Assembly (NCBI RefSeq): GCF_019968905.1
Contig: NZ_CP079946.1
Coordinates: 5,601,356 to 5,665,355 of the forward strand
Direction of reading: 5' to 3'
DNA: 64,000 nucleotides
Source of the DNA: Corallococcus sp. EGB
Lineage (GTDB): Bacteria; Myxococcota; Myxococcia; Myxococcales; Myxococcaceae
This document shows positions 15,834 to 50,981 of the stretch, in pieces (within the stretch, counting starts at the first letter, position 1; the number at the start of each line of letters is the position of its first letter). The position numbers and the translations under genes are program-made. The notes under the pieces were generated by a model. It saw nothing but the letters and a program-made list of their open reading frames with translations, was not told the origin of the DNA and searched no databases.

Positions 15834-17285
15834 GTGCGGCACACGTTGAACCGCCAGGGCCCTCGGGCCATGCGGTATGAGCAGGGCGTGATCCTCCACC
15901 GCGTCCGCCATCACCTGTCCATCCTCGCCATGGCCCTGACCGGCCTGGGTGCCTCCCGGGCTCACGCCGACGAGGACACGCCCGATGCCTCGCTCCGCCA
16001 TCCGGTCGTGGCGGAGGTGACGGTGGAGGGCGCGAACAAGACGACGTCTGGGACGGTGCGCTCGTTCGGGCGGGTGGGCGTGGGCGACGAGGTGGACAGC
16101 GAGGAAATGGAGAAGGTGGAGCGGCGGCTGCTGGCCACGGGCCTCTTCCAGGAGGCCCACGTCAGCACGGAGCCCCTGCCCGACGGGCGCGTGCGGCTGG
16201 TGCTGCGCGTGAAGGACAAGGCGTCGTGGGTCGTGGCCCCCACGGTGGCGCTGTCCTCCGCGAACACGGGCGGCGGACTGCTCTACGCGGAGAACAACCT
16301 GGCCGGCCGGGCAAAGAAGCTCGCGGTCGCGGCGCAGGCGAGCACCGGCGAGAGCGGCCTGTACGTGGGCTATCTGGACCCCATCCTCTTCGGCCTGCCA
16401 CAGCTCAAGTTCAGCCTGGAGGGACAGCTCAAGAGCGACCGCGTGGACGAGTACCTCCCGGGCGCCAGCCAGGACAACCCGGAGATCCTCCGGCGCACCC
16501 GCCTCAACTCCGCGTCCATCAGCTCCGAGCTGGGCTTCATCCTCTTCGAGCGCGTGCGCGCGGCGGCGAAGTACCGGCTCGCCAGCATCGACGCCCAGGC
16601 CCCGGACCCGAAGAAGCCGGTGACGACACAGGCGTTCTCCACCGGCCCCGCCCTGCGCGACGCCTCGCTGCGCTTCATGGTGGGACTGGACTCACGCCAG
16701 ACGCTGCACGCGGTGACCGAAGGACTCAACCTGGAGGGCTCCTACGAGGTCTCCGTCCCGGGCGTGTGGAGCGAGTTCCGCTACCGCAAGTTCGGCCTCC
16801 TCTACCGCCACGGCATCCGCTTCTTCAGCGAGCACAACCTGGTGCTGCGCGGCGAGCTGGCCGTGGGCAAGGACCTGCCCTTCCACCAGGAGCTGGTGAT
16901 GGGCGGCAACACGCTGCGCGGCTTCCAGTACCGGCAGTTCCGCGGCGACACCCGCCTCACCTTCACCGCCGAGTACCACTTCCCCCTCTTCAAGGTGAAG
17001 TCGCTGGCCTTCCGGGGCGTGGGCTTCTCCGACTCAGGCGCCATCGCGTGGCGGGACCTGCCCTCCGACGGGCTCTTGCGCGACGGAGCGGGGCGCGTCA
17101 TCCGGGGCTATCTGCCAGAGACGACGGCGAGCCCGAACTCCGTCACCGTGGCCCAGGGCGTGGGTGCGGGCCTGCGGCTGTACCTCAACAACGTCGTGCT
17201 GCCCCTGTTGGGCGTGGACGTCGCCTACGGCGTCAACTCCGGCCAGGTGCGCTTCTACCTCGTCGCCGGAGTCACGCCGTCCTGA
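15834..17285 (+). CDS. Omp85/BamA-like outer-membrane beta-barrel (surface antigen D15 family), single POTRA
   Basis: Signal-like LSILAMALTGLGASRAHA; POTRA-like VAEVTVEGANKTTSGTVRSF; C-terminal barrel with GGNTLRGF and a terminal aromatic-rich strand. The start may be the in-frame M at 15870. Confidence 0.65.
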   Translation: MRHTLNRQGPRAMRYEQGVILHRVRHHLSILAMALTGLGASRAHADEDTPDASLRHPVVAEVTVEGANKTTSGTVRSFGRVGVGDEVDSEEMEKVERRLLATGLFQEAHVSTEPLPDGRVRLVLRVKDKASWVVAPTVALSSANTGGGLLYAENNLAGRAKKLAVAAQASTGESGLYVGYLDPILFGLPQLKFSLEGQLKSDRVDEYLPGASQDNPEILRRTRLNSASISSELGFILFERVRAAAKYRLASIDAQAPDPKKPVTTQAFSTGPALRDASLRFMVGLDSRQTLHAVTEGLNLEGSYEVSVPGVWSEFRYRKFGLLYRHGIRFFSEHNLVLRGELAVGKDLPFHQELVMGGNTLRGFQYRQFRGDTRLTFTAEYHFPLFKVKSLAFRGVGFSDSGAIAWRDLPSDGLLRDGAGRVIRGYLPETTASPNSVTVAQGVGAGLRLYLNNVVLPLLGVDVAYGVNSGQVRFYLVAGVTPS

Positions 17286-17303
17286 AGCAGCCCGCTCCCT
17301 GGC

Positions 17304-18218
17304 TCAGGTGCTCACGCCAGGCCACGCCTCCGGCGCCAGCGTCAGGCGGAACGGCGGCGCGTCACCGCGCACCGTCCGCCACAGCGCCTTGTCCGCGCAC
17401 AGCGCCTGCGCGATGCGGCCGGACGTCGCGCGGATGCGCTCCACCACGGCCTGGTGCTCCTCCGGCGTCTGCGCCTCCAGCATCGCGACGACGTTCTCCC
17501 AGACGCGCTGCCGCCAGACGATGAGCATCTCCATCACCGCCCGCTCCACCACGGGACGGCTGAAGGGCATGCGCAGCAGCAGCCGCGTGGACACGCACCG
17601 GTAGCGCTCCGCGAGCAGGTCCACGCACTCCGGGATGCACGCGCGAAGGATGGTGTTCACGTGGAAGTAGTCGTGCCGGTAGCGAGCCAGGCGGCGAGCG
17701 TCCACCGGCGGCGACTGGTGCGCGATGCTGTCGTGGACCACCATTCCCAGGTCGTGGTTGATGTGGGCGCTCACGCCCAGCAGCGCGTCCTGATAGGGCT
17801 GTGTGATGCCCTGCGCGGGGTAATGCGTCGCGAACCGCCACGCCGCGCTGGGCAGCGGCCGGTGCATCAGCGAGTCCCGCACCGCGACGAGCGCCTCCTC
17901 CGCGAAGCGGCCTGTCAGGTGGGACAGCCACTCGGGTTCGAGGAAGCCGCCCGCGTCCGGCCGGTTCAGCAGGTGGACGACCCGCCGTGTGACGATCGCG
18001 TAGATGTCCAGGAAGATGGCGCGCGAGTCGCTCCGCGCGTTCAGCCGGCTGACAATCTTCTCCAGCCCCTCCAGCGCCTCCTCCGCGTCGACAGGATGCC
18101 AGAGCACGTCATCCAGCCGGATGGCGTCCCGCGCGTCGGGGGCCGTTGAATCATGGAGGTAGCGGGACTTGGGGGACTGCTTCCGGGTGGCCTGGGAGAA
18201 GGCCGGTGAGACGTTCAT
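17304..18218 (-). CDS. conserved hypothetical protein
   Basis: Start MNVSPAFSQ chosen within ORF 17304..18320; globular helical composition; lies 57 bp downstream of the cytochrome c gene. Confidence 0.45.
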   Translation of the reverse strand: MNVSPAFSQATRKQSPKSRYLHDSTAPDARDAIRLDDVLWHPVDAEEALEGLEKIVSRLNARSDSRAIFLDIYAIVTRRVVHLLNRPDAGGFLEPEWLSHLTGRFAEEALVAVRDSLMHRPLPSAAWRFATHYPAQGITQPYQDALLGVSAHINHDLGMVVHDSIAHQSPPVDARRLARYRHDYFHVNTILRACIPECVDLLAERYRCVSTRLLLRMPFSRPVVERAVMEMLIVWRQRVWENVVAMLEAQTPEEHQAVVERIRATSGRIAQALCADKALWRTVRGDAPPFRLTLAPEAWPGVST

Positions 18219-18376
18219 GGCGAGCGCTCCGCGGGAGGGGGGAACGACTTCACCTGAAAGCCTATCGAAACCGGCCCTCCCCTCAAAGACGGCCCACCGC
18301 GATTTGACGTCTTGTTTCACCAGCCCCCCGCGCGTTGGCTCTCACGCGGGGGGGCTGTGTCACACGAACGTCAATT

Positions 18377-19633
18377 TCAGGGCGCGGTGCCTTCGCTCAC
18401 GCCACTGCCCGTCTTGCCCAGCACGTACTTCGCGAGCGACAGGGCGTTGTTCTCATCGATGAGCGACTCGTAGGTGGGCATCTGCGTGCCGGGCTTGAAG
18501 GACTCCGGGTTGCGGATCCACTTGGCCACTTCCTCCGGGGCCTTGCCCTTGGCGCCCTGGAGCTTGGCCTCGTAGGCCTTGCCGGCGGCGTGGCAGGTCG
18601 CGCAACCCAGCGCGCTGAACATCTTCTCGGGGTCGCTGTTGGAGGGCTCGACCTTGGGGCGGCCACCGGTGGGCGGCGGCACCACCTTGTCGTTGGCCTT
18701 CACGGAGCGCAGGAAGGTGTAGAGGGCCGAGAGCTCCACGTCGTCCGCGTAGCGGTACTTGGGCATGGGCGGGCGGAGGATGAAGCCGCCGGGCGTGATG
18801 CCGGTGACCATCGCGTGCTTGAACTCGTCCAGCGTCCACTTGCCAATGCCGGCTGTCTCGCTGGGGGTGATGTTGGGCGACAGCAGCTTGCCCTCGCCGC
18901 CCAGCGGCACCAGGTCGAACTCGAAGCCGCCGCTCAGCAGCGTCTCCGGGTGCTGCATCTTCACCGCGCTGCTCTCCAGGCCCGGCGAGTGGCAGAAGGT
19001 GCAGTCGTAGACGGCGGAGGCGATGTAGCGGCCGTACTCCACGGAGTCCGCCGCCTTCGCGGGCACGGGCACCGGCTCCGTGCGGCCCTTGTCGTTGATG
19101 CCCATGGCGAACGCGAACGCCATGCGGCCCGGAGGCGTCAGCTCGGAGCGCGGCGGCTGCTGCTTCTCCGGCGCGAAGTCCGGGTGCCCGGAGCGCATGA
19201 AGCCGATGACCGCCGCGATGTCCTTGTCACCCATGTTGGGGAACGGGGGCATGGGGCGGAAGTGGTTGTTCTTGTCGATGCCGTTGATCACCATGCGGGC
19301 GATCTCCTGGTCCGTCCAGGCGCCCACGCCCATCTCCATGTCGGAGGTGATGTTGGCCGAGTAGAACGTGCCCAGCTCGGCCGGGAAGTCGTGCATCCGG
19401 CCGCCCACGGGCTTGGTGTTGCCGCCGCCCGCGTGGCACTCGCCGCACACCGCGCGGAACACCTGCTCACCGCGGGCAATGCCCTCCGGCGAGCTGTCCC
19501 GCGTGATGTTGGGCAGCGCGACGTAGTCATACGTCTTGTTGATCTTGTGGGTGGCGACACCCATGGCGGTACCCGCGCCAATCAAGGCCAGCGCGACCAG
19601 GACGCCTACGGCGATCAGGATCTTTTTCATCAT
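18377..19633 (-). CDS. membrane-anchored c-type cytochrome with three CxxCH heme sites
   Basis: N-terminal TM anchor MMKKILIAVGVLVALALIGAG; heme motifs CGECH, CTFCH and CATCH spaced about 140 aa apart (three class-I-like domains). Confidence 0.8.
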   Translation of the reverse strand: MMKKILIAVGVLVALALIGAGTAMGVATHKINKTYDYVALPNITRDSSPEGIARGEQVFRAVCGECHAGGGNTKPVGGRMHDFPAELGTFYSANITSDMEMGVGAWTDQEIARMVINGIDKNNHFRPMPPFPNMGDKDIAAVIGFMRSGHPDFAPEKQQPPRSELTPPGRMAFAFAMGINDKGRTEPVPVPAKAADSVEYGRYIASAVYDCTFCHSPGLESSAVKMQHPETLLSGGFEFDLVPLGGEGKLLSPNITPSETAGIGKWTLDEFKHAMVTGITPGGFILRPPMPKYRYADDVELSALYTFLRSVKANDKVVPPPTGGRPKVEPSNSDPEKMFSALGCATCHAAGKAYEAKLQGAKGKAPEEVAKWIRNPESFKPGTQMPTYESLIDENNALSLAKYVLGKTGSGVSEGTAP

Positions 19634-19729
19634 GGGGAACGGTGCTCCGAACGAACGGGGACACGGGACTCCGCCATCCCTCGGGACGGGATGGACGGAG
19701 CGGAGGCGCTGCGACTGTGACTGCGGCTG

Positions 19730-20842
19730 CTACTGCCCGGGCAGACAGGTGGTGAGCGGGGGAATCGAGATGGTCGTCGTGGGGACGGTGCTGTTCACCT
19801 GGAGCCCGGCGAACGTGACGATGCCCGGGACCTGCGGGATTTCCAGCGGCTGGAACGCGAAGCGCGGGCCCTTGCCCGGCGCGATCTCCAGCGTGTCCTT
19901 CACCGTGTAGGTGATGTTCGCCGGAGGCCCCATCAGCGGCGGCTGCACGACGACGATGATGCCCAGCTTGCTGCTGGCCGCCGGCGGTCCCGGGGGGATG
20001 AAGAAGCCGCGCGCGGACTGCAGCGGCGCCAGGGGTGGAGGCAATGCGCCCGGAGGCGCCCAGTCGATGTGGAACACACGTCCGCTGGAGGCTTCCACCG
20101 TCGTGCTGTCCGCGGGCACGCGGAACACGGGGAAGCCCGGGGCGTAGAGCCAGAACACCGTCACGCCGCCGTACTTCGCCGGGTTGAGCAGGTCCGCCAC
20201 CGTCACGGACGTGCTGGTCTCGGCGCTGAGGGACCGGGCCACCGCGTCCAGGATGCCCTTGTCGCTCATCTGGAGCGCTTCCAGGCCCACGCACGCGCTG
20301 TGGGCCGGCACCACCGGGCGCACCGTCATGGTGGTCAGGTAGTTGCCCGCCGGCACGGGCGGCAGCGGGAAGGGCCCCTGGACGTCATTGGCCACGGTCC
20401 CCGGCCCCGGCACGGACAGGACGAAGTACGGCGCGCCCCTGCGGGTGGGCACCTTCTCCATCGTCCACAGGCCATGCGCGTCCGACGGCACGGGCGCGGC
20501 CGGCGCGGGGGGCATGTGGGTGACGGGATCCGGCACCGTGTCCTGCAGCGTGACGAGCGCGCCGCGCACCACCGAGCGCTGGAACAGCGGGCTGAACTCC
20601 GCGTACAGCGGCGGCAGCGCGCACTGCGTGCCCGGAGGGGCGCAGTGGGCCAGGTTGAAGAAATAGGCCTCCGGGTCCACCGCGAAGCCGGAGAGCCGCG
20701 AGGTGAGACCCTCCGGCTCGCGGTTCTCGTAGACGGGGCGCGGCGTGAAGTTCGACGCCGCGGGGGAGGAGGTGTTGTCCTGGCAGCCGGCGTTCAGCAG
20801 GGCCGCGCCGAGGAGCGTTCCGACGAAGAGGGCTCTGTGCAT
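19730..20842 (-). CDS. hypothetical Pro-rich lipoprotein
   Basis: Lipoprotein signal MHRALFVGTLLGAALLNAGCQD; 370 aa; lies between the two cytochrome genes with 15-bp and 97-bp gaps. Confidence 0.55.
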   Translation of the reverse strand: MHRALFVGTLLGAALLNAGCQDNTSSPAASNFTPRPVYENREPEGLTSRLSGFAVDPEAYFFNLAHCAPPGTQCALPPLYAEFSPLFQRSVVRGALVTLQDTVPDPVTHMPPAPAAPVPSDAHGLWTMEKVPTRRGAPYFVLSVPGPGTVANDVQGPFPLPPVPAGNYLTTMTVRPVVPAHSACVGLEALQMSDKGILDAVARSLSAETSTSVTVADLLNPAKYGGVTVFWLYAPGFPVFRVPADSTTVEASSGRVFHIDWAPPGALPPPLAPLQSARGFFIPPGPPAASSKLGIIVVVQPPLMGPPANITYTVKDTLEIAPGKGPRFAFQPLEIPQVPGIVTFAGLQVNSTVPTTTISIPPLTTCLPGQ

Positions 20843-20857
20843 GGCGGGTTGCGTCCC

Positions 20858-22768
20858 CTACTTCGCGGGGAGGATGTGGCGGGAGGGGAGCTGATCGCCG
20901 CCGTGGCACGTCTGCGCGCAGGTTCCGAACTTGCTGGGCGTGCCGCGCTGGCTGAAGGCGATCTGGAAGAACTCGTCACCGTGCTGCGAGATGTGGCACG
21001 AGCCGCACAGCGCCAGGCTGGGGCGCTCCGTGCTCTTGCGCGTCAGGTGGCACACGCTGCAGTCCGCGCGGTTCGCCGGGTAGCTGGGCGAATTCATGTG
21101 GATGCGGTGCACCATCTCCTGCGTGCGGCCCACGGTGTCCGTGTCGTAGTGGTGGCAGACCTTGCAGCTCTCGATGTGGTCCACCGACAGGCCGTGGCGC
21201 AGGTTGTCCAGCGACAGCACGCCGCGGTGGCACAGCTGGCAGTTGCCCACGTTGCCCGGGTACGTCGTCGGCTCGTCCTGGCCCACCTGGAAGAAGAAGG
21301 GGTTCAGCTTCGCGATGCGCTCGCCCATGGCCCCGCGGTTGAACTTCACCAGCGCCACGTAGGTGCCCGGCTTCGCGTTCGCCGGCAGCGTGAACGTCTG
21401 GCGCGTGGGCCACCTGTAGTCGATGAGGCCCGGCGTCAGGCCCGTGAGCGTGGCGTCATCGTAGACGGGGAACGGGAACGGCTTGGCGAAGAACTGCGGC
21501 GTGTCGCTCGGGTTGCCCAGCACCTTCAGGTCCTGCAGCGGCCCCGCGATGGCCACGTTGGAGATGGTGTCGTTCTCCGCCGTGATGGAGATGACGCCGG
21601 GGACGAAGGTCAGCAGGCCGTTGGACTGGCCACCGATGATGTCCCGCGCGCTGGGCAACAGGTCCGGGGAGTGCAGGTGCGCCCCGGAGCTGTCGCGCAG
21701 GTCGATGTAGACGCTCACGTCCTCGCCGGGCTTGTAGAAGCTGCCCTCCTTCGGAGGAGAGAAGACCAGCCGCGAGTCCAGGCCCGGGCTGCACTGCACC
21801 GGGTTGCCCGCGTCGTCGGTGCACGTGGACGGGCGCTCATCCGGGATGACGTACGTCACCGGGAAGTAGAACGGCTTGTCCGGCAGCTGGCTCCAGGTGG
21901 CCCGGAGCGCGCCGGGGCCCGACAGGCGCGGGATGCGCAGCACCTTGAACGGGTTGGTGCTGCCCACCCAGTCCACGCGCGCGATGGTGCGGGTGGTGGG
22001 GCTCTGATCCAGGCCGCCCGTGATGCCCGTGACGGTGCCGGGGTCCTTGTCGCCGGGGAAGCGCGGCGCCTTCAGGTTCTCCGACCGCCAGGCGAAGCGG
22101 CTGTGGCCGGCGTAGGGCGAGGAGGCCAGCAACTCCGAGCGCAGGTACGTCTGGCTCGCGCGCGGGGCGCCCGTCTCGTCCAGCACCTCCACGGTGATGG
22201 TGTCGTCCTTCACCTTCTGCCAGTTCGCGTTGCCGAACTGCACCTCACGCGTCCAGCAGTCCTCCACCGCGCCCGCGAGGCTGTAGAAGCTCCACTCGTC
22301 CGGCCCCTGGTTGACGTTGGTCCAGTCCAGGCCGGCGAACACCGTCTGGGTCTTGATCCAGTTGAGCGCCGGCGTCAGGTCGGTGGGGTTGGTGTGCTGG
22401 TTGACCACGCTCTCCGTCACGGAGAACTGGTTCAGGAAGTACTGCGTATCCGACAGGATCTGCATCGTCCCCTGGGGGGGCGACAGCGTCAGCGGGTTCT
22501 GCGCGAGCGGCGTGACGCACACGTCCGGGTACGGGACGGGCACGCCGTTCTTCGCCACCATCTGCCCGTTGGGCAGGAAGGCGCAGCCGTTGATGTACTG
22601 GAGACTCAGTCGGATCGCGCCGGAGTTGAGGCCCTGGTACGGGTCGAACCGCTTGGCGCCGCGGCCCGTCGTGGATCCCTCGTCGTCAGTGACCTTGAGG
22701 AGGTTGCAGGACAGCAGGGGCACCAGCAGGGCGCACCACGCGCTCTTCAGCAGGATTGAGCGGTTCAT
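20858..22768 (-). CDS. multiheme c-type cytochrome lipoprotein with a large N-terminal non-heme domain
   Basis: Lipoprotein signal ...LLVPLLSCNL; about 480-aa beta-rich N-terminal region; C-terminal cluster CQLCH, CKVCH, CSVCH, CGSCH plus CAQTCH (CX3CH). Confidence 0.75.
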   Translation of the reverse strand: MNRSILLKSAWCALLVPLLSCNLLKVTDDEGSTTGRGAKRFDPYQGLNSGAIRLSLQYINGCAFLPNGQMVAKNGVPVPYPDVCVTPLAQNPLTLSPPQGTMQILSDTQYFLNQFSVTESVVNQHTNPTDLTPALNWIKTQTVFAGLDWTNVNQGPDEWSFYSLAGAVEDCWTREVQFGNANWQKVKDDTITVEVLDETGAPRASQTYLRSELLASSPYAGHSRFAWRSENLKAPRFPGDKDPGTVTGITGGLDQSPTTRTIARVDWVGSTNPFKVLRIPRLSGPGALRATWSQLPDKPFYFPVTYVIPDERPSTCTDDAGNPVQCSPGLDSRLVFSPPKEGSFYKPGEDVSVYIDLRDSSGAHLHSPDLLPSARDIIGGQSNGLLTFVPGVISITAENDTISNVAIAGPLQDLKVLGNPSDTPQFFAKPFPFPVYDDATLTGLTPGLIDYRWPTRQTFTLPANAKPGTYVALVKFNRGAMGERIAKLNPFFFQVGQDEPTTYPGNVGNCQLCHRGVLSLDNLRHGLSVDHIESCKVCHHYDTDTVGRTQEMVHRIHMNSPSYPANRADCSVCHLTRKSTERPSLALCGSCHISQHGDEFFQIAFSQRGTPSKFGTCAQTCHGGDQLPSRHILPAK

Positions 22769-23017
22769 GGAAGACGAGGCCGGAGGCAGTCAGGGGAAGG
22801 AAGGGGAGCAGGTGTCCACACGCGCGGGCCCACACGACCCACCGTTCCCGACGCCGCCACCCTTCCGCCACGCGGAGAGGGTGAGGTCCGGGAAGGGTTG
22901 GGAGGAGAACACCTCATCGGTTCGAACTGACCACATTATGAGAGTCCGCGCAATTCGTGGACAGCAGATCACACCGGGGAAATCGCGCGGAGTGGTCGCG
23001 TGACTCAGGGCGTCGGA

Positions 23018-23944
23018 CTAGAGGCTGAGGCCGGCGGACAGGAGCAGCGCGAAGACGAGCCCCAGCGCCGCGGTCTTCCCCAGGTGGGGGTTGAGCGCGC
23101 CGCCATCCTCGCGCCAGATGGCGCGGATCTGCCTCACCGCGAGTGGCAGGGCCGCCAGCGTGAGGAGCCAGGCCTTGGGGTGCTCCGGCGTCACCGCCCA
23201 GACGAGCACCGGGAGCGCGAACGCGCCCGCCACGGCCACCGTGTACTCCCACTGGCCGAAGCGCTGGCCGAAGCGGACCACGAGCGTGCGCTTGCCGGCG
23301 ACGACGTCCGTCTTGCGGTCGCGCAGGTTGTTCACCGCGAGGATGCCGGCGGAGAACAGCCCCATGGACAGCCCCGCCAGCAGCACCGCCGGCGTGACGT
23401 GATGGGTGAGCACCCCGTAGCTGCCGCTCACCCCCAACAGGCCGAAGATGATCAACACCAGCACGTCCCCCAGGCCCAGGTAGCCCAGGGGGACGGGGCC
23501 CGCGGAGTAGAAGACCGCGCCGCCCAGGCAGAAGGCGCCGCCCAGGAACACCGGCCACCCATCCACCTGGGTCAGGAGCAGCAGCGCGAGCGAGGAGCCG
23601 GTGAACGCCAGCGCCGCGGCCGTGGCCACCTCGCGCGCGGTGAGCCAGCCCTTCTGCGTGACGCGCGCGGGGCCCAGGCGCGCCTCCGTGTCCGCGCCCC
23701 GTTCGAAGTCCGCGTAGTCATTCACCAGGTTGCTGACGATCTGCATGAGCACGAAGCCCACCAGGAACGTGAGCGCCGGCACCGGCTGCCAGTGCCCTTC
23801 CGCGTGGGCGAAGGCCCAACCCAGCAGCGTGGGGGCGATGGAGGCGGTCAGCGTCTTGGGCCTGAGGGCGAGCCACCAGACGCGGGCCAGAGGGGGTTTC
23901 ACTTCAACCGCGACACTCGACGACGGGGAAATCGGGGCGGCCAT
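23018..23944 (-). CDS. menA: 1,4-dihydroxy-2-naphthoate polyprenyltransferase (UbiA superfamily)
   Basis: NDYADFERGAD motif and a second Asp-rich region; 8-9 TM helices; start MAAPISPSS within ORF 23018..24049. Confidence 0.8.
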   Translation of the reverse strand: MAAPISPSSSVAVEVKPPLARVWWLALRPKTLTASIAPTLLGWAFAHAEGHWQPVPALTFLVGFVLMQIVSNLVNDYADFERGADTEARLGPARVTQKGWLTAREVATAAALAFTGSSLALLLLTQVDGWPVFLGGAFCLGGAVFYSAGPVPLGYLGLGDVLVLIIFGLLGVSGSYGVLTHHVTPAVLLAGLSMGLFSAGILAVNNLRDRKTDVVAGKRTLVVRFGQRFGQWEYTVAVAGAFALPVLVWAVTPEHPKAWLLTLAALPLAVRQIRAIWREDGGALNPHLGKTAALGLVFALLLSAGLSL

Positions 23945-24030
23945 GGGTCTCCGGGGGAGGGAGCAGGCGCACGGTAAAGCTACAGGCCCAGGGGCCGCAA
24001 GAGGACCCAATGAATCACATTGGTTGCCCT

Positions 24031-24050
24031 CATGTATCACCTGATACATG
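24031..24050. promoter_or_regulatory. perfect palindrome (9-bp arms, 2-bp spacer), candidate operator in the menA/slt divergent region
   Basis: catgtatca-cc-tgatacatg, AT-rich in a 70% GC genome; a second inverted repeat ccaatg-aatca-cattgg lies at 24007..24023. It sits 87-106 bp upstream of the menA start and 470 bp upstream of slt. Confidence 0.35.
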
Positions 24051-24519
24051 CAGCCTCCGCCCCGTGGCTGGAGCGGATTGTCAACATCGCGTCACGGCGC
24101 CATGCGCCCCAAAGGCAGACGCGAGCCGCACCTGCCGTGAATTCATTGATACGCTGAAGCAGCATCAGTCCGGCGCGTTCGCGTCCGCATCGACTTCAAG
24201 CGGGAGGAGGAGCTGTCCTTCGGGCTGGGAGCCCGCGCGGTACGAGCCGACGTACGAGGTAGCGCCCCGCATGCCGAGCGACCTCGGGGGTGCGGCTCGC
24301 CACGCCCTGACAGCAGGCGAACACCCCTGGGTATGTAGCACCCCAGACGCCACCCGCGCGGCCACCGTGCCGTTGGCTTTCTTGCAGGGCTCCTGGTGTG
24401 TGCCGGGGGCCGGATGCACAGAAGGCAACGCAGGCCTGACAAGGGGACAGGCGGGCAGGTTCCAAGCGGAGTGGCAGTGCCAATCCATCGGGGTCGCTGG
24501 CGGACGAACGAGGGGTGGC

Positions 24520-30705: not shown

Positions 30706-31368
30706 ATGCGGAACCAGACCATCGAGGCGGCACTGGCGAAGAATCCCCACCGTGAGCAGCTGATCAAGCACCGGTTCTTCGAGGTCGTGGATGAGAAGGC
30801 CTTCAGCCGCGAACAGGCGGAGATGGTGCTGGGGCAGTGGTGGCACCCCCTGCACTACTTCCCCAACTTCCTGAGCAAGCTCATCGCCGTCTGCCCGCAG
30901 ATGGAGATGAAGACGGCGGTGACGCACATCCTCAACCAGGAGGTGGGCGAGGGAGACCCGGCGCGCGCGCACGAGCGCTTCTTCATCCAGACGATGACGG
31001 ACGCGGGCTTCACGAAGGCGGGCGTGTCGGAGGCGGACATGACGCCCGCGACGCGCCGGCTCATTGACGGCTATCAGCGCGCCACGGACAACCACCTCAC
31101 CGGCCTGGGCTTCCTCTACGGCACCGAGGTCGCGGACCTCACCATGGTGGCCAAGCTGGGCAAGCTGGTGCGCCGCACCACGGGCCTCAAGGCCCTGCCC
31201 TGGGTGGACATCCACGTGAAGCAGGAGCCGGACCACGTGGAGACCGCCGGCCACACGGTGGGCCTGCGGTACTCGGACGAGGAGCTGGCCACCATCACCC
31301 GCGGCGCCGAGGAGATGTGGCAGCTGTGGGTGGGCTTCTTCGAGGAGCTGCGCAACCGCGTCGTCTGA
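30706..31368 (+). CDS. heme-oxygenase-like fold protein (TenA/PqqC/CADD-like, putative di-iron redox enzyme)
   Basis: 220 aa, all-helical; ExxH-like carboxylate/His pairs (NQEVGEGD, AHERFF, HVKQEPDHVE); divergent from the desaturase at 29600..30484. Confidence 0.5.
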   Translation: MRNQTIEAALAKNPHREQLIKHRFFEVVDEKAFSREQAEMVLGQWWHPLHYFPNFLSKLIAVCPQMEMKTAVTHILNQEVGEGDPARAHERFFIQTMTDAGFTKAGVSEADMTPATRRLIDGYQRATDNHLTGLGFLYGTEVADLTMVAKLGKLVRRTTGLKALPWVDIHVKQEPDHVETAGHTVGLRYSDEELATITRGAEEMWQLWVGFFEELRNRVV

Positions 31369-43974: not shown

Positions 43975-46900
43975 TCAGGGCACGTCCAGCGCGACGCCCT
44001 GGCCGGGCACGGCCATCACCCAGCGGACGACGTCCGGCTTGCCGCCGCAGGTGACGCGCACCTCGAACTCGCGCCCCGCGGGCATCTGGCTGGACAGCGG
44101 CGTCTGGCCCTCCAGCACCTGCGAGCCCAGTGACACGCGGCACCCCTGGGCGCCGGTGACGCTGAGCGTGCCCCGGGCATCCGCCTGGGGCGCGGCGTCC
44201 GCGAGCGTGCGCAGGTCGATGTGCTCTGACTTGGGCACCTTGCCGAAGCGGTGCAGCTTGCCGTCCACCGCGGTGGAGACGAGCCAGCCCGAGGGGTCCT
44301 CCGGCAGACCGGAGTTCGGATCCAGCAGGACGCCGGACAGGTAGACGCGCTCGCCCTCCTGGGCGTTGCGCACCTCCACACCGCCCTTGGGCAGGAGGAA
44401 CACCAGCGCGAGCCCCGCGAGCACCAGGCCCACACCGCCCACGATGAGCCCCTTGCGCTGACCGGGCGTGAGCCCCTTCCCGCCCGCCGTGGCGGCGGGG
44501 GCCTGGGCCGTGGACGCCACCGCGTGGACGGGGGCCGGCGGCGCGGCCACGGGCGCCACCGGAGGGCGCACGGGCGTCGCGATGGGGGTCACCGGCGGGA
44601 GCGGCGGAGCGGCCACGGGCTGCGGCGGAGCGGCCCCCGGCGGAGGATAGGCCGCGTGGGTGCCCGTCGGCGGCGGCGAAGGGGTCCCCGGCTGAGGCGC
44701 GGGAGGCGCCGCGTATTGCGCGTGGGTGCCGCCAGGCTGCACGGACATGGCCGCGGGGGGCGGCGGCGGAGGGGCCGAGGTCAGGGGCGCGACGGAGGGC
44801 ACCGACACCGACGGACGCTGCGGCGGAGGCCCCACGCGCGTGGGCACGTTGGCGGAGGCGGCCGGCCGCACGGCGGTGGGCGGCGGCAGCGACGACCCGG
44901 GCGCGGGCGCGGCCGGGCGCGAGGGACGCTGCGCGGGCGCGGCCACGGGCGGCGCGGCCGGGGGACGCGTGGGGTCGGCGACGGAGACGACCTCCGTGCC
45001 ACGGTCGGCGGGCTCCGGCGGAGCGGCCACCGGGGGCGGCTCCATCCGGGGCATGCTGCCGGAACCGCCACGCGCGGGCGGCCGGGACAGGTCCGACGGG
45101 GCCCGCATGTCGCTGCCCGAGCCCGAGCCCGTCCCCAGGTTGCGCGAGTGCGAGCCCGTCCCCGGCATCAGCGCACGGGGGTTGGAGCCCGTCCCCGAGC
45201 CGGAGATGGACGACGGCGCGTACTCGGTGAGCCGGTCGCCCAGCGCCTCCTTGAAGAACTGCGCCACCGACGCGGGCGACGAGGACAGCCGGTGGTGCGC
45301 GATGACGGCTTCAATCTCCTCGCGCATCGCCGCGGCGGAGGGCGTGCGCCGCGCCGGGTCCTTCACCAGCGCGCGCAGGATGAGGTCCGACACGTCCTGC
45401 GGAATGTGGGGCCGCAGCTGCGAGGGCACCGGCGCGGGCTCGCGCACGATGGCCGCGAGCGTCGCCGCGTCGTGGTCCCGGCGGAAGGGCAGCTGGCCGG
45501 TGAGCAGCTCGAAGAGCACCACGCCCAGCGCGAACACGTCGTTGCGCCAGTCCAGCGGGCGGCCGCTGGCGGCCTCCGGGGAGAGGTACGAAATCTTTCC
45601 CTTGATGACGCCCGCCTGCGTGTGCTCCTCGCCCTGCACCTTGGCGATGCCGAAGTCCGACAGCTTGATGGCGCCGTCCAGCGACACCAGCACGTTGTGG
45701 GGACTGACGTCGCGGTGCACCACCGGGTGCGCCGTGCCGGACGGGTCCACGTAGCTGTGCGCGTAATGCAGGCCCGCGGCCACCTCCGCCACGATGCGCA
45801 GCGCGTGCTCCAGCGGCAGCGCCATGCCCTTGCGGCGCAGCTCCGTGATGAGGCGCTTGAGGTCCGGGCCGCGCACGTACTCCATCAGGATGTACGCCAC
45901 GCCGTCCGTCACGCCCACGTCGAAGGTCTGGACGACGTTGGGGTGCGTGAGGCGCGCGTTGGCGCGGGCCTCCGCGAAGAGCATGTCGACGAACTCAGGA
46001 TTCTCCGCGAACTGCGCGAGAATCTTCTTCATCACCACGAACTTCTCGAAGCCCTTCACGCCCTGCTGCTTGGCGAGGAAGACCTCCGCCATGCCGCCCT
46101 GCCCCAGCCGGCGGATGATCTGCAGCCGCGCGCCGCCGCTGTGCGTGTCCGTGGGCGACGTGCCCCGGGCGCCGGGGTCCTGGTTGGTGGAGCCGAAGAG
46201 GTACTGGCTGAGCGCGCGCTGCTCCAGCGCCTCGATGTCGTCCAGCGGCTTGTCGGTGAGGGGCGTGCGCGCGAGCAGCCCCTGGAACTGCGCGAGCGCC
46301 GGGGCCCGGGCGGTGCCGCCGCAGACGGGGCACACGCGCTCCATGGTGCCCTTGGCGCGAAGGACCTCCAGGTACTCGGAGGTCTGGATGCGCTGGTGGG
46401 TGACCTGGCCGCAGTTGCGGCAGTCGCACGGCAGCCACAGCGTGGCCAGCTTCGCCGGGAGCGCCTTGGTGGACTTCGCCAGGACGCTCAGGAGCGGCGG
46501 CGGCACGCGGCAGAGGACCACCTGGGCGCCCTGGGACGCGACCTCCAGCACCTGTTCGATGCGCGGCAGCGCCTCCGGCTCCACCACGCTCACGTGGCAG
46601 CAGTCGAAGGCGACGCGCCCCTCCAGGCCGGACGCCAGCCGGCGCACGTTGAGGTCGCCCTTGAGCGTGCTGGCCAGGGTGATGAAGGTGATGTCGTCCT
46701 GGATGATCTTCAGGTGCGACGCGAGCTCGGACGGCTCTGACGGGATGCCCGAGCGCAGGTAGCGCAGCACCGCCGGGTCCACCGCGGAGAACTGCTGGCG
46801 GCGCGCGAAGTCGAAGAACTCCGTGGGCTCGTCCGCGAACTCCAGCGGCTGGGCGCACACCGGGCACTGGTGCGGCGGGGCTCCGCCCTGCTCCAGCACC

Positions 46901-47283
46901 TTCGCCTCCTCCACCAGGCGCACCAGCCGCAGCCGGTCCTCCTTGCAGAAGCGGCACGTGTACGGCGCCAGCATGGAGAGCACGCGCGCGACGCCCGCGA
47001 AGCCCTCCACCATGTTGAGCTGATCCACCACCACCGGCGGCGCGTTGACGACGTACAGCCCCGACACGCCCTGCGGCGGGTGGCCGGCGAACTCGATCCA
47101 CCGGCGCACGCCGAAGGAGCTGATGCGCTCCACCAGGCCCAGGTCCACCACCACCAGGCCCTGGAGGCCCTTGGAGGTGGACGTGAGGGGGAAGGTTTCG
47201 TCGATCACCCCGGCCACGCGCACGTGGGTCAGACTGCCCACGCGCAGGGAGGTGATGCTGGCATTGGAAGTTTGGCTCTCCAC
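43975..47283 (-). CDS. Ser/Thr protein kinase fused to two N-terminal STAS (anti-sigma-antagonist-like) domains and zinc ribbons; Pro-rich linker, one TM helix, C-terminal extracytoplasmic domain
   Basis: STAS-like SLRVGSLTHVRVAGVIDETF and a second copy; CxxC pairs (CRFCKED...CPVCAQ; CDCRNCGQ...CPVCGG); kinase motifs GQGGMAEVFLAK, HRDVSPHNVLV, DFGIAK; about 230 aa Pro/Ala-rich region; TM LIVGGVGLVLAGLALVFLL. Start taken as GTG (VESQTSNASITSL) after gagggtagg; the ORF's ATG at 47364 is also possible. Confidence 0.75.
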   Translation of the reverse strand: MESQTSNASITSLRVGSLTHVRVAGVIDETFPLTSTSKGLQGLVVVDLGLVERISSFGVRRWIEFAGHPPQGVSGLYVVNAPPVVVDQLNMVEGFAGVARVLSMLAPYTCRFCKEDRLRLVRLVEEAKVLEQGGAPPHQCPVCAQPLEFADEPTEFFDFARRQQFSAVDPAVLRYLRSGIPSEPSELASHLKIIQDDITFITLASTLKGDLNVRRLASGLEGRVAFDCCHVSVVEPEALPRIEQVLEVASQGAQVVLCRVPPPLLSVLAKSTKALPAKLATLWLPCDCRNCGQVTHQRIQTSEYLEVLRAKGTMERVCPVCGGTARAPALAQFQGLLARTPLTDKPLDDIEALEQRALSQYLFGSTNQDPGARGTSPTDTHSGGARLQIIRRLGQGGMAEVFLAKQQGVKGFEKFVVMKKILAQFAENPEFVDMLFAEARANARLTHPNVVQTFDVGVTDGVAYILMEYVRGPDLKRLITELRRKGMALPLEHALRIVAEVAAGLHYAHSYVDPSGTAHPVVHRDVSPHNVLVSLDGAIKLSDFGIAKVQGEEHTQAGVIKGKISYLSPEAASGRPLDWRNDVFALGVVLFELLTGQLPFRRDHDAATLAAIVREPAPVPSQLRPHIPQDVSDLILRALVKDPARRTPSAAAMREEIEAVIAHHRLSSSPASVAQFFKEALGDRLTEYAPSSISGSGTGSNPRALMPGTGSHSRNLGTGSGSGSDMRAPSDLSRPPARGGSGSMPRMEPPPVAAPPEPADRGTEVVSVADPTRPPAAPPVAAPAQRPSRPAAPAPGSSLPPPTAVRPAASANVPTRVGPPPQRPSVSVPSVAPLTSAPPPPPPAAMSVQPGGTHAQYAAPPAPQPGTPSPPPTGTHAAYPPPGAAPPQPVAAPPLPPVTPIATPVRPPVAPVAAPPAPVHAVASTAQAPAATAGGKGLTPGQRKGLIVGGVGLVLAGLALVFLLPKGGVEVRNAQEGERVYLSGVLLDPNSGLPEDPSGWLVSTAVDGKLHRFGKVPKSEHIDLRTLADAAPQADARGTLSVTGAQGCRVSLGSQVLEGQTPLSSQMPAGREFEVRVTCGGKPDVVRWVMAVPGQGVALDVP

Positions 47284-47287
47284 CCGC

Positions 47288-48130: not shown

Positions 48131-48138
48131 ACAAGGCC

Positions 48139-50745
48139 CTAGTAGTGGAGCCGGACTTCGGTGAAGACGCCCAGCGGCGGGGCGGGGAAGCCGTGGGACT
48201 CCTCGTACTTCGCGTTGAAGAGGTTGGTACCCAACAGGGACACCGCCACGCGCTCGTGGACGTTGAAGCCCACGCGCGCGGTCGCGGTGATGTAGCTGGG
48301 CAGCTTCACGCGGGTGGTGGTGCCGGCGTTCTCATCCACCACGAAGCCCGGATCATACCGTGCGCCCACGAACAGGCCGTAGAGCTCCACGAAGGCGAAC
48401 TTGCCGATGTTGGTGCGGCCGCGCAGGTACACGCGGTGGCTGGGCGCGTAGTCCAGCGGGTAGCTGGCCCCGCCGCCCACCGGCAACGCCTGGGCGTCCA
48501 GGAACTGGTAGGCCACGTCGAAGGACGAGTTGAGGGACGGCACCTGCGCCGCGGCCTCCGCCTCGAAGCCCGCCACGCGCGCGTCGCCCAGGTTCTGGAA
48601 CTGCGAGGTGGAGCCGAAGAGGAGCTCCTGGTTGATGAAGTTCCGGGCGCGGTTGTAGAAGCCCGTGCCCGTCAGGCGCACCTTGCGGTCGAAGGGCCAG
48701 AAGTCCACGGCCGCCTCCACCGTGTCCAGCGTCTCCGCGCGCAGCGCCGGGTTGCCCAGCAGCGTCGCGGCGTACATCTGCTGGTTGATGGCCAGCTCCG
48801 CCAGCGTGGGCGCGCGGAAGGCGCGGCCGTAGTTGGTGCGCAGCGTGAGCAGCTCCGGGATGGCGTGGAACACGACGCTGGCGCGAGGGGAGATCTGATC
48901 CGTGCGCTCCGACCAGACCTTGGAGGGGATCTGGTAGTTGTCGTACCGGGCGCCGCCGCCCACCACCAGCCGGTCCGTGATGCGGTACTCCGCGTCCACG
49001 AAGCCGCCCAGGATGGTCTGCTTCGTGTCGTCCAGGGTCAGGCCGGGGAGGACGTTCTGGTTGTTGACCTGGTCGGCCTTGATGTCGCCGCCCACGGTGA
49101 CGGACAGCTTGTCCAGGGAGAACAGCGCGCGCGCCTCGCCGCCCAGGCGGCTGCGCTTGCCGAGCGTGTCCTCCAGCGCGCCGGTGATCTCGTTCTCCAG
49201 CGTCACGTTGCGGCGCTTGAAGAACGCGTAGCCCTGGGCGAACACGCGCACGTTGTCCGTCACCTGCTGATCCAGCTGCAGGGCGGCGTTGAGGTTCTGG
49301 ACGTGCTCGTTGTCCTGCGCGGTGTAGTGGCAGCGGCCGCAGTTGCCCACGGTGGAGATGTTCTGACCGCCGGGCCGGCCGATGTTGCCGTCGGTGAAGT
49401 CCGCGTCCAGCGCAAGGGGGCCCACGCGGACCTTGCCGTTCACCTGGTGGACCAGCGAGTCCTCGTTGGTGTCCGTCTGGTTGAGCTGCGGGTTGTTGAA
49501 GAGCTGCGGGCCGTCCGAGCCGAACCCGTAGTAGCCGAGCAGCGCCTCCACCGGGCCGCCGCGGCCGGCGACGTTGGTCTGCAGGCGCCAGGTCTTGTCC
49601 TGGCCCGCGAGGATGCGCGCGTCCGCGCCCACGTTCTGGCCCTTGGCGATGAGATCGCCGGGCTGGCGCTCGATGATGTTGATGACGCCGCTGAAGGCGT
49701 TGGAGCCGTAGAGCGACGAACCCGGGCCGCGAATCACCTCCACCTGCTTCAGGTTGGTGAGCGGCGTCGTCTCATCCGCGTAGAACTGGCCCGTCCAGGG
49801 GTCCGTCAGGGGACGGCCGTCCTTGAGGAGCAGGAGCCGGTTGGACAGGTAGTTGGAGCCCAGGCCGCGCGCGCTCACCGCCGCCTTGCGCATGGAGCCC
49901 CGGCGGCACTCCATGCCCGGGAAGTACTGGATGGCCTCGCAGAGCGAGAACTGGCCGGTGCCCTCCAGCTCCTCCGCCGGAATCCAGGACACCGTGAGGG
50001 GCACGTCGGAGATGCGCTGGCTGCGCTTGGAGGCCGTGGTGACGACGGCCTCGCTCAGCGCCATGTTGATGTTCTTCTCCAGGTCGTCGCCTCCGCCCAG
50101 GTCCGGGCCGTCCAGGCCGGAGAGGCTGGAGGGCGGCGGCAGCGCGCGGTCCGGGGTGGGCTCCGTGAAGGGCGCGCGGTCCGGGACGTTGGTCGCCGCG
50201 CGCGGCTGCGACGACGGCAGCACCGCGCCGGAGCCCAGCGCGGGCGGCGGGTTGGAAGGAACGTCGGTGGTCAGCGGCCCGTCATAGGGCGACGTGGGCG
50301 AGGCCACGGGCAGCGGATCCGACACGGACGGGCCGGGGCCGGCCAGCGGGGGCGGAGGCGGCGTGTGCGCCGGCTCGTTGGCGAGCGCGGGCTCCTGCGG
50401 CTGGGTGGGCGCCTCGTCCGGAATGAACTCCGGCTCCACCGGCGGAGGCGGCGTCTTCGCGCCCCGGCGCGTCTTCGCGGCGCGCGGCGGCTTCGCCCCC
50501 GGAGTCGCCGTCTTCGCGCCCGGGGAGGTGGCCGCCTTCGCGCCCGGGGGGGTGGCCGCGCGTTTGCGGGCCGTCTTGGTCCGCGTCTTGGAGGCGGGCT
50601 CCTGGGCCTCCTGGGCCCGGGCCGTCTCCAGCGTGAACAGGGACAGCGCGCAGACCACCAGGGTAAGGCATGCGCGCGCGCTCAGCCGCCCGGCAAACCC
50701 CTTCACCGCGTTGGTGCGCGGCCCACCGTACTCAGTCGAGTCCAT
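48139..50745 (-). CDS. TonB-dependent outer-membrane receptor with a long Pro/Ala/Lys-rich N-terminal extension
   Basis: Signal peptide, then about 200 aa of low-complexity sequence (AKAATSPGAKTATPGAKPP...), plug (EVIRGPGSSLYGSNAFSGVINII), beta-barrel and a C-terminal aromatic strand VRLHY. Contains a CGRCH motif. Confidence 0.8.
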   Translation of the reverse strand: MDSTEYGGPRTNAVKGFAGRLSARACLTLVVCALSLFTLETARAQEAQEPASKTRTKTARKRAATPPGAKAATSPGAKTATPGAKPPRAAKTRRGAKTPPPPVEPEFIPDEAPTQPQEPALANEPAHTPPPPPLAGPGPSVSDPLPVASPTSPYDGPLTTDVPSNPPPALGSGAVLPSSQPRAATNVPDRAPFTEPTPDRALPPPSSLSGLDGPDLGGGDDLEKNINMALSEAVVTTASKRSQRISDVPLTVSWIPAEELEGTGQFSLCEAIQYFPGMECRRGSMRKAAVSARGLGSNYLSNRLLLLKDGRPLTDPWTGQFYADETTPLTNLKQVEVIRGPGSSLYGSNAFSGVINIIERQPGDLIAKGQNVGADARILAGQDKTWRLQTNVAGRGGPVEALLGYYGFGSDGPQLFNNPQLNQTDTNEDSLVHQVNGKVRVGPLALDADFTDGNIGRPGGQNISTVGNCGRCHYTAQDNEHVQNLNAALQLDQQVTDNVRVFAQGYAFFKRRNVTLENEITGALEDTLGKRSRLGGEARALFSLDKLSVTVGGDIKADQVNNQNVLPGLTLDDTKQTILGGFVDAEYRITDRLVVGGGARYDNYQIPSKVWSERTDQISPRASVVFHAIPELLTLRTNYGRAFRAPTLAELAINQQMYAATLLGNPALRAETLDTVEAAVDFWPFDRKVRLTGTGFYNRARNFINQELLFGSTSQFQNLGDARVAGFEAEAAAQVPSLNSSFDVAYQFLDAQALPVGGGASYPLDYAPSHRVYLRGRTNIGKFAFVELYGLFVGARYDPGFVVDENAGTTTRVKLPSYITATARVGFNVHERVAVSLLGTNLFNAKYEESHGFPAPPLGVFTEVRLHY

Positions 50746-50981
50746 CGTTCTCAATTCCACGAGGGGGAAGCAGGGATGTCCGCGGTCCTTGCGCCAGGAG
50801 CCAGAGCCGGTGCGACTGGCAATCGCTCAGGGGGTCGAGTTTCCACCCCTGAACGATGGCGTTCCGCTCGACTTCTCAAATTACCGCAATAACTCGCCTT
50901 AGGCCAAGTCATGGCTGTCGATCGCGGCAAAACACGCGCACGGCGACGGGAGCGCCGTGCGCTGATCAGCCCACGGCGCAA

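Follow-up and report, generated by a model that had tools for sequence, protein, structure and literature searches.

Within the 64-kb window of the Corallococcus sp. EGB genome analysed here (64,000 nucleotides, G+C content of about 70%), a minus-strand gene of 636 codons probably encodes a pentahaem c-type cytochrome tethered to the outer membrane, which would act as a short electron wire and not as an enzyme, with covalent haem attachment predicted from its motifs. To our knowledge, surface cytochromes with multiple haems have been described almost exclusively in anaerobic metal respirers and iron oxidisers. The five-haem version described here is conserved throughout two families of aerobic predators, the Myxococcaceae and Archangiaceae; in the model organism Myxococcus xanthus, which also has it, its only annotation is hypothetical protein. 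Should it be an outer-membrane electron-transfer module, it would stand for overlooked extracytoplasmic redox chemistry, with iron mobilisation, reduction of shuttles and electron uptake as candidates. The interest of the system lies mostly in these unexpected hosts and in the link to a TonB-dependent barrel that carries a haem motif.

The product of the open reading frame (ORF) and a hypothetical protein of Corallococcus sp. EGB found in a homologue search share 100% identity. Its N-terminus, MNRSILLKSAWCALLVPLLSC, reads as a signal peptide with the lipobox LLSC and a lipidated Cys21. The haem motifs CQLCH (residues 510–514), CKVCH (535–539), CSVCH (570–574), CGSCH (588–592) and CAQTCH (617–622) follow each other closely at the C-terminal end, and no CXXCH is found upstream of residue 510 in the 636-residue protein. 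A word-indexed search returned 132 homologues, all from Myxococcaceae, Archangiaceae or related metagenome-assembled genomes (MAGs), the genera being Corallococcus, Myxococcus, Pyxidicoccus, Archangium, Hyalangium and Melittangium; most of them are full length, share 39–93% identity and are annotated as hypothetical protein. A genome scan yielded 62 loci from the same taxa, with two paralogues in some genomes. All conservation figures given below for the cytochrome refer to an alignment of 113 sequences from Myxococcaceae and Archangiaceae (39–93% identity). In this alignment Cys21 is conserved in at least 90% of sequences, the ten cysteines and five histidines of the haem motifs are invariant, and every member (113/113) has exactly four CXXCH motifs and one CX3CH motif, an invariance which indicates that the motifs did not arise by chance. 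By these sequence features the protein is a real and strongly conserved lipoprotein of the outer-membrane type with five predicted haem sites. A preliminary description of the gene had called it a lipoprotein cytochrome with a non-canonical CAQTCH haem site and had proposed an alignment of orthologues; the lipobox and the five conserved motifs bear out the lipoprotein cytochrome, and in the alignment the CX3CH site proves real, both CAQTCH cysteines being kept in 113/113 sequences.

Five further histidines may provide the distal ligands. H525, H554, H596 and H631 are invariant and H557 is at least 90% conserved, so that with five conserved candidates for five haems all haems are predicted to be six-coordinate with bis-His ligation. 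The AlphaFold2 (AF2) model calculated on the 113 homologues has a mean predicted local distance difference test score (pLDDT) of 87.8 and a predicted template modelling score (pTM) of 0.86. Residues 20–40 form a disordered tether, residues ~50–495 are nearly all beta, and residues 505–636 are modelled as short helices, as is typical of a multihaem domain when the haems are left out of the model. Sequence and model hence agree with the earlier observation that the five motifs are packed into the last ~130 residues behind a large, beta-rich and haem-free region.

Profile comparisons indicate that the pentahaem domain is a remote homologue of domain II/IV of the cytochromes MtrC, OmcA, MtrF and UndA. 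When the family profile was compared with all PDB sequences, MtrF and two MtrC entries ranked first, and haem motifs 1–4 together with three distal histidines were placed in register with MtrF domain II. A haem-domain profile of the wider superfamily described below retrieved UndA (4.9e-7) and several MtrC entries (about 2e-5) from the PDB ahead of NrfH, Hmc and c3/c7 cytochromes. The Pfam model of MtrC/MtrF domains II/IV, PF22113, gives a weak match (E 6e-5, 23.1 bits versus a gathering score of 30), and TIGR03507 matches only a 23-residue stretch (E 0.0021) with 16.6 bits versus a cut-off of 209.3; both weak matches recur in relatives. Among the cytochrome c3/c7 models, a class that also includes PF02085, PF14537 (18.8 versus 25 bits) and PF14522 (16.9 versus 24.8 bits) stay below their thresholds. 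The best structural matches of the whole protein are OmcA, MtrC and UndA; as 181–261 residues are aligned and the haem domain has only about 130, the match takes in the preceding beta domain as well.

MtrC is composed of beta-barrel domain I, pentahaem domain II, beta-barrel domain III and pentahaem domain IV, and the OmcA/MtrC family as a whole shares this four-domain architecture with 10 or 11 haems (PMC9973256). The Corallococcus protein looks like one half of MtrC, consisting of a beta domain and a pentahaem domain, which has been extended by two beta-sandwiches. It shares with the Shewanella proteins MtrC, OmcA, MtrF and UndA the N-terminal LXXC lipoprotein signal (here LLSC with Cys21). 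In contrast to the MtrC family, it has a single pentahaem domain with 5 haems instead of two with 10–11 and thus lacks the four-domain architecture; where that family has two split barrels, it contains three beta-sandwich domains; its fifth haem site is CX3CH instead of CXXCH; and its hosts are aerobic Myxococcaceae and Archangiaceae instead of metal-respiring Shewanella. Genes of the MtrA/MtrB type were found neither in the window nor among the conserved neighbours in the 65 loci on which all context counts are based. Because the scores miss the cut-offs of TIGR03507 and PF22113, the haem complement is halved, the number of domains differs, the fifth site is non-canonical and mtrAB partners are lacking, the protein is not a member of the MtrC/OmcA family; its own family, like the wider superfamily around it, has no name. 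A literature search retrieved no paper on this pentahaem family or on multihaem cytochromes of Myxococcus.

The region in front of the haem domain does not look like an enzyme, judged from its conservation and its modelled fold. According to AF2 secondary structure and Foldseek, three beta-sandwich domains (~50–215, ~224–307 and ~331–495) follow the flexible tether, and Foldseek comparison of the region with the PDB retrieved only generic tandem beta-sandwiches of the immunoglobulin (Ig), fibronectin type III (FN3) and macroglobulin (MG) kinds. In the Pfam/NCBIfam scan no model covers residues 1–500. The fold prediction proposed in the preliminary description thus returned an almost all-beta region with generic matches only, and the region matches no established family. 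The invariant residues of the region are Gly, Pro, Trp and two Cys pairs, C62–C84 and C316–C326, and no conserved His, Cys, Met or acidic cluster of a catalytic or cofactor-binding type was seen in the alignment. The structural nature of these residues, the N-terminal sandwiches and the fold matches to OmcA, MtrC and UndA argue for the architecture of a non-enzymatic surface electron-transfer cytochrome, at least in the model. They also speak against the earlier proposal of a large substrate-binding domain fused to a cytochrome, as in oxidoreductase-cytochrome fusions: no catalytic or cofactor domain was recognised, and there are five conserved distal histidines for five haems. The C316–C326 pair (window ~21791–21823, minus strand) marks the beginning of the beta domain adjoining the haem domain, and its spacing varies from X9 to X26 across the family. 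It recalls the CX8C motif of MtrC domain III, whose disulfide acts as a redox switch controlling flavin binding (PMC9973256).

An exhaustive profile search of 1.84 billion representative sequences returned 227 proteins at E<=1e-3. Beyond the full-length family, these delineate a wider uncharacterised superfamily that shares the first beta domain (with an LDW...NAxWM motif), the last beta-sandwich and the pentahaem domain. Its members include Pendulispora albinea WP_394827431.1 (annotated 'cytochrome C'), a protein of a Planctomycetota MAG, and proteins with type IX secretion system (T9SS) tails on metagenome contigs of the Fibrobacterota-Chlorobiota-Bacteroidota (FCB) type. They differ from the pentahaem family in their middle regions, in extra haem domains or T9SS sorting tails carried by some of them, and in their gene neighbours. 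All superfamily members keep the two cysteines and the histidine of the fifth haem site, but with different spacing: X3 in most members, including 12/12 of one distant clade, X4 in several, X5 in one and X2 in the most remote. This drift identifies the expanded spacing, on sequence grounds, as an old and drifting lineage trait of the terminal haem of the module and not as the mark of an enzyme. The earlier suggestion that CX3CH points to a specialised multihaem enzyme is therefore not upheld, the more so as the published CX3CH cases found in the literature, ImcH, some CymA homologues and one branch of MtrA, are electron carriers. ImcH, some CymA homologues and the MtrA branch with a distal Cys likewise have a single CX3CH among CXXCH motifs in an electron-transfer protein; their atypical site belongs to the first haem, by the membrane anchor or the N-terminus, whereas here it belongs to the last haem, with H631 as likely distal ligand. 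The invariant CX3CH of the family and its X2–X5 relatives form a natural series for cytochrome c maturation at non-canonical spacing.

Three distant cases from the superfamily deserve mention in their own right. In the Planctomycetota protein (P0207) haem motif 3 lacks the first Cys (DYTVCH), which makes it a single-thioether site, and the fifth site is CX4CH. On a Joint Genome Institute (JGI) metagenome contig (L068), two tandem paralogues of a distant clade directly follow the gene of a 1287-residue multihaem cytochrome, and the module there seems to belong to a larger gene set for extracellular electron transfer. At a third locus (L069), a distant member is flanked by genes for a 969-residue multicopper oxidase, SCO1/SenC and ApbE, which suggests that the redox context of that lineage may involve copper or flavin.

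Lipoproteins of M. xanthus are sorted to the inner membrane by Lys at position +2 and to the matrix by Ala at position +7, and others are found in the outer membrane (PMC3222651). The cytochrome has Asn at +2 and Thr at +7. In the family, position +2 is N, D, Q or E in 107/113 sequences and K in 2/113. Given this sorting rule, +2 Asn in the cytochrome and +2 Gln in the partner lipoprotein introduced below, both proteins are predicted to be outer-membrane lipoproteins. The T9SS tails imply that the remote superfamily members carrying them are exported to the cell surface, and these relatives, together with the extracellular MtrC family, argue by analogy for surface exposure of the cytochrome.

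A homologue of the 370-residue partner lipoprotein adjoins the cytochrome gene in 64/65 loci, directly downstream in 63 and directly upstream in one (L058). The partner family is characterised by conserved Cys pairs and the motifs DPEA, WAPPG and QSxRGF, and has neither a haem motif nor a conserved His. The gene order shows the partner to be an obligatory companion of the cytochrome, and the gap of 15 bp in the window shows, as far as gene spacing can, that both are co-transcribed. The gene downstream of the distant member at L069 was considered as a partner homologue and rejected (hhalign probability 0.2%); since this neighbour is not homologous, the partner is a feature of the Myxococcaceae/Archangiaceae family only. 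In 31/65 loci a class-I cytochrome c with two or three haems is encoded right next to the cassette on the same strand, upstream or downstream, and this cytochrome is always membrane-tethered: by a transmembrane helix in the Corallococcus/Hyalangium clade, and in the Myxococcus clade as a dihaem lipoprotein (K, R or Q at +2) with a long Pro/Ala linker. The tri-haem protein of the window is the probable electron link to the respiratory chain, with quinol-linked and oxidase-linked transfer as candidate roles; it has ~150 residues per haem domain.

A further recurrent element is a barrel homologous to TonB-dependent receptors, which in the window contains the motif STVGNCGRCHYTAQDNEHVQ. Its Plug (PF07715, 66.9 bits) and PF00593 (148.7 bits) domains score above the Pfam thresholds and identify it as a TonB-dependent receptor homologue, and its closest relatives among solved barrels are CirA (E 1e-28) and the haem receptors PhuR and ShuA. 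It is 49–73% identical to receptors encoded near the pentahaem gene in six other loci. Three of these (L044, L051, L053) have the barrel gene immediately upstream of the cytochrome gene, with the two genes abutting or overlapping; the barrel gene comes straight after the partner gene in L034, is divergent in L045 and lies at a distance of ~4 kb in L016. Two metagenome contigs have the operon order barrel, cytochrome (overlapping), partner. All cytochrome-associated barrels share the motif VGNCGRCH[YFA]TPxDxExVQ, and exactly one CXXCH is present at the same site in 120/120 best barrel homologues (59–97% identity), whose taxa are those of the cytochrome family. A barrel of only 28% identity from an unrelated MAG retains a CXXCH where the two sequences align and has another within an insertion of 25 residues; its gene overlaps that of a remote superfamily member (P0195), so the pairing of cytochrome and haem-motif barrel spans the deepest split sampled. 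In the window the two genes are 25.4 kb apart in a genome of 9.43 Mb, for which our own arithmetic gives a chance expectation of ~0.5%. Judged tentatively from an alignment with CirA, the motif follows a short GG turn and occupies the outer end of a strand. In a literature search we found no publication describing a haem-c TonB-dependent receptor or a multihaem companion lipoprotein of such a barrel.

SusC/SusD, TbpA/TbpB and BtuB/BtuG are established examples of TonB-dependent transporters with companion surface lipoproteins. The present system resembles them in its Plug and 22-strand-type receptor and in the operon of barrel, lipoprotein and lipoprotein that is found in several lineages; it differs from them in that one lipoprotein is a multihaem cytochrome and the barrel carries a conserved CXXCH. 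In Cyc2 an N-terminal cytochrome domain is fused to a porin, and in MtrAB/PCC a porin sheathes a decahaem protein. Common to all is the idea that redox partners in the periplasm and outside the cell are linked by an outer-membrane barrel with c-type haem as part of it or enclosed in it, whereas the barrel described here is a plugged homologue of TonB-dependent receptors with an internal CXXCH.

Based on this dataset, we propose the following model for the outer-membrane pentahaem cytochrome. Its five bis-His haems would form a short wire. At one end, the pair of cytochrome and partner lipoprotein would exchange electrons with the membrane-tethered di- or tri-haem class-I cytochrome c, and through it with the periplasmic or inner-membrane pool; at the other end there would be a partner or substrate at the outer membrane. 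Both lipoproteins may sit on or beside the haem-bearing barrel, as surface lipoproteins accompany TonB-dependent transporters. The roles given to the class-I cytochrome and the barrel are inferred from their conserved neighbourhood. Our favoured guess couples a redox step, such as the reductive mobilisation of Fe(III), to TonB-dependent uptake; a reverse flow from an external donor into the aerobic chain would be equally compatible with the data. That cytochrome, partner and CXXCH barrel together make up a previously unrecognised outer-membrane redox machine, in which a plugged haem-c barrel is wired to an MtrC-like surface cytochrome, is a tentative extension of this model which we do not expect to hold in full. 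Such a machine could couple electron transfer to TonB-dependent uptake (reductive acquisition of iron or other metals) or could be a new conduit across the outer membrane distinct from MtrAB, PCC and Cyc2. If the barrel haem is real, the integration of electron transfer into a TonB-dependent transporter would amount to a new design principle, in a host that is genetically tractable.

Several observations weigh against this model. For haem attachment, location and partners alike, the model relies on predictions. An MtrA/MtrB-type conduit is missing from the vicinity, and apart from the barrel with its single CXXCH, the window contains only two cytochrome genes, the pentahaem and the tri-haem one; without an MtrAB-like conduit, the assumption of surface exposure calls for caution. 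One barrel haem alone cannot span the outer membrane, which leaves the electron route to a surface protein unexplained, and the CXXCH of the barrel could form a disulfide or bind a metal instead of holding a haem. The barrel gene of Corallococcus and Myxococcus is not a neighbour of the cytochrome gene and belongs to a conserved cluster of its own. Around other distant superfamily members the neighbouring genes are unrelated and encode a giant multihaem protein, two-component systems or a multicopper oxidase. In metagenomes, 77 matches to the DNA pattern for VGNCGRCH were obtained, only 9 of them barrel orthologues, and the pentahaem gene was present in 0/9 of their short flanks, a scan that speaks neither for nor against the coupling of cytochrome and barrel.

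Among other explanations, an ordinary periplasmic carrier or scaffold at the inner leaflet of the outer membrane, serving an aerobic chain based on menaquinol and unrelated to the barrel or the cell exterior, survives best, and we consider it unlikely. It would fit the commonest neighbours, which are membrane-tethered class-I cytochromes with domains like those of cbb3 subunit III, and the lack of a porin-cytochrome conduit in the vicinity; the Myxococcaceae are aerobes. Genes of menaquinone synthesis also recur by the cassette in one clade: menA is adjacent in loci of the Corallococcus group (11/13 members of the menA cluster) and lies close to the cassette in L026 and L046, and menF (PF00425) is found beside it in L013, L014, L026 and L046 and nearby in L048. 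These genes may reflect a functional link to the menaquinol pool or old synteny. However, the T9SS-tailed relatives are exported and the closest known family is extracellular, the operon with an outer-membrane barrel has been kept or has arisen in lineages as distant as 28% barrel identity suggests, and three Ig-like domains along with a second beta-sandwich lipoprotein would be unusual for a simple shuttle.

A dissimilatory extracellular terminal reductase in the manner of MtrC/OmcA, acting under oxygen limitation on insoluble Fe(III)/Mn(IV) oxides or on soluble shuttles, appears improbable. The homology and fold likeness to MtrC, OmcA and UndA, the distant paralogue pair beside the 1287-residue multihaem protein and the C316–C326 pair, reminiscent of the redox-switch CX8C in MtrC domain III (PMC9973256), would all be in keeping with such a function. 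Against it stand the complement of five haems only, the missing MtrAB-like conduit, and conserved neighbours that encode class-I cytochromes and a TonB-dependent barrel but no porin-cytochrome proteins. The Myxococcaceae and Archangiaceae are moreover obligate or near-obligate aerobes, which is general knowledge about these hosts.

We give still less credit to the fusion proposed earlier, in which a substrate-binding or catalytic domain of ~480 residues would be joined to a five-haem wire and the CX3CH site would be a specialised or active-site haem. The N-terminal region is indeed large, conserved and without a match to a known family, CX3CH is invariant, and genes of oxygenase type accompany the cassette in some loci, namely Rieske/VanA_C (20 loci), HpaB, O-methyltransferase and Haem_oxygenas_2. 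Yet the region resolves into three separate beta-sandwich domains in which the invariant residues are structural and no His, Cys, Met or acidic cluster is conserved, its best fold matches are non-enzymatic cytochromes of the MtrC type, the spacing of the fifth site drifts from X2 to X5, and the conserved sixth-ligand histidines predict no open coordination site on any haem; the Rieske protein lacks a signal peptide and would thus be cytoplasmic. A structural or adhesive surface lipoprotein with Cys-His motifs as metal or disulfide sites can practically be dismissed: both lipoproteins are built of Ig-, CnaB- or transthyretin-like domains typical of adhesins and pilins, but the four CXXCH and the one CX3CH never vary among the 113 sequences and are matched by five conserved distal histidines, and the domain is homologous to bona fide pentahaem domains.

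The features of the window are listed in Table 1. The minus-strand gene order is menA, 249 bp, pentahaem cytochrome, 15 bp, partner lipoprotein, 96 bp, class-I cytochrome, 56 bp, DUF5995. A scan of positions 17000–24300 for sigma-70 promoters and terminators found no promoter-like sites and one terminator-like match, which is on the wrong strand and below chance; without a useful signal of this kind, the operon structure rests on gene spacing and synteny only.

Table 1. Features of the 64-kb window discussed in the text (positions are those of the window)
Feature	Position	Strand	Description
Pentahaem lipoprotein gene	20858..22768	-	ATG-started ORF, 636 amino acids; end coordinate includes the stop codon
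Signal peptide and lipobox	22706..22768	-	Residues 1-21, LLSC; mature start Cys21, then Asn; read from the sequence
Haem-free N-terminal region	21257..22648	-	Residues ~41-504; AF2 secondary structure, pLDDT
C-terminal pentahaem domain	20861..21256	-	Residues 505-636; remote homologue of MtrC/MtrF/UndA domain II/IV
Fifth haem site CAQTCH (CX3CH)	20903..20920	-	Residues 617-622; translation of that stretch
Partner lipoprotein	19730..20842	-	370 amino acids; lipobox NAGC, +2 Gln; transthyretin/CnaB-like beta-sandwiches, no haem motif
Class-I cytochrome c, tri-haem	18377..19633	-	418 amino acids; N-terminal hydrophobic helix; CGECH, CTFCH, CATCH; PF13442 3.3e-18, PF00034
menA (1,4-dihydroxy-2-naphthoate polyprenyltransferase)	23018..24049	-	TIGR00751 190.9 bits versus cut-off 102; 249 bp upstream
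DUF5995 protein	17304-18320	-	Downstream of the cytochrome operon
Single-POTRA Omp85-family protein	15834-17285	+	Downstream of the cytochrome operon
TonB-dependent-receptor-like barrel	48139..50760	-	CGRCH at 49327-49341; orthologue of cytochrome-linked barrels elsewhere
PhnD-like periplasmic binding protein	50982-51908	-	Barrel cluster
280-amino-acid cytoplasmic protein	47288-48130	-	GGGAGLGL motif; barrel cluster
Ser/Thr kinase	43975-47364	-	Barrel cluster

A functional link to the Omp85 and DUF5995 genes was considered and set aside; the arrangement is confined to Corallococcus and is hence probably synteny. In the Myxococcus/Archangium clade, a Rieske/VanA_C oxygenase gene lies directly upstream of the cytochrome c/pentahaem genes in 20 loci (including L002, L031 and L039), a secreted protein of ~470 residues without Pfam match is divergently encoded in 24 loci, and PmbA/TldD genes are neighbours in 25 loci. 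Together with the men genes, these are possible links or plain synteny and are not counted as parts of the system; for the Rieske/VanA oxygenase, the link was set aside because the protein is presumably cytoplasmic, having no signal peptide, and because the association is conserved in one clade only.

The barrel cluster (43975–51908, minus strand; L070) is shared by Corallococcus and M. xanthus and comprises genes for a tetratricopeptide repeat (TPR) protein, the PhnD-like protein, the barrel, the 280-residue protein and the Ser/Thr kinase, which suggests that the barrel is tied to a signalling module. On the two metagenome contigs with the order barrel, cytochrome, partner, the next genes encode an HpaB-like monooxygenase, an O-methyltransferase and a Haem_oxygenas_2 protein (PF14518), with a CCP_MauG dihaem peroxidase on the opposite strand; together, these genes could serve the synthesis or modification of a small aromatic redox compound. 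A PF14518 gene is also present in the window, at 30706–31368 on the plus strand, ~8 kb from the cytochrome gene.

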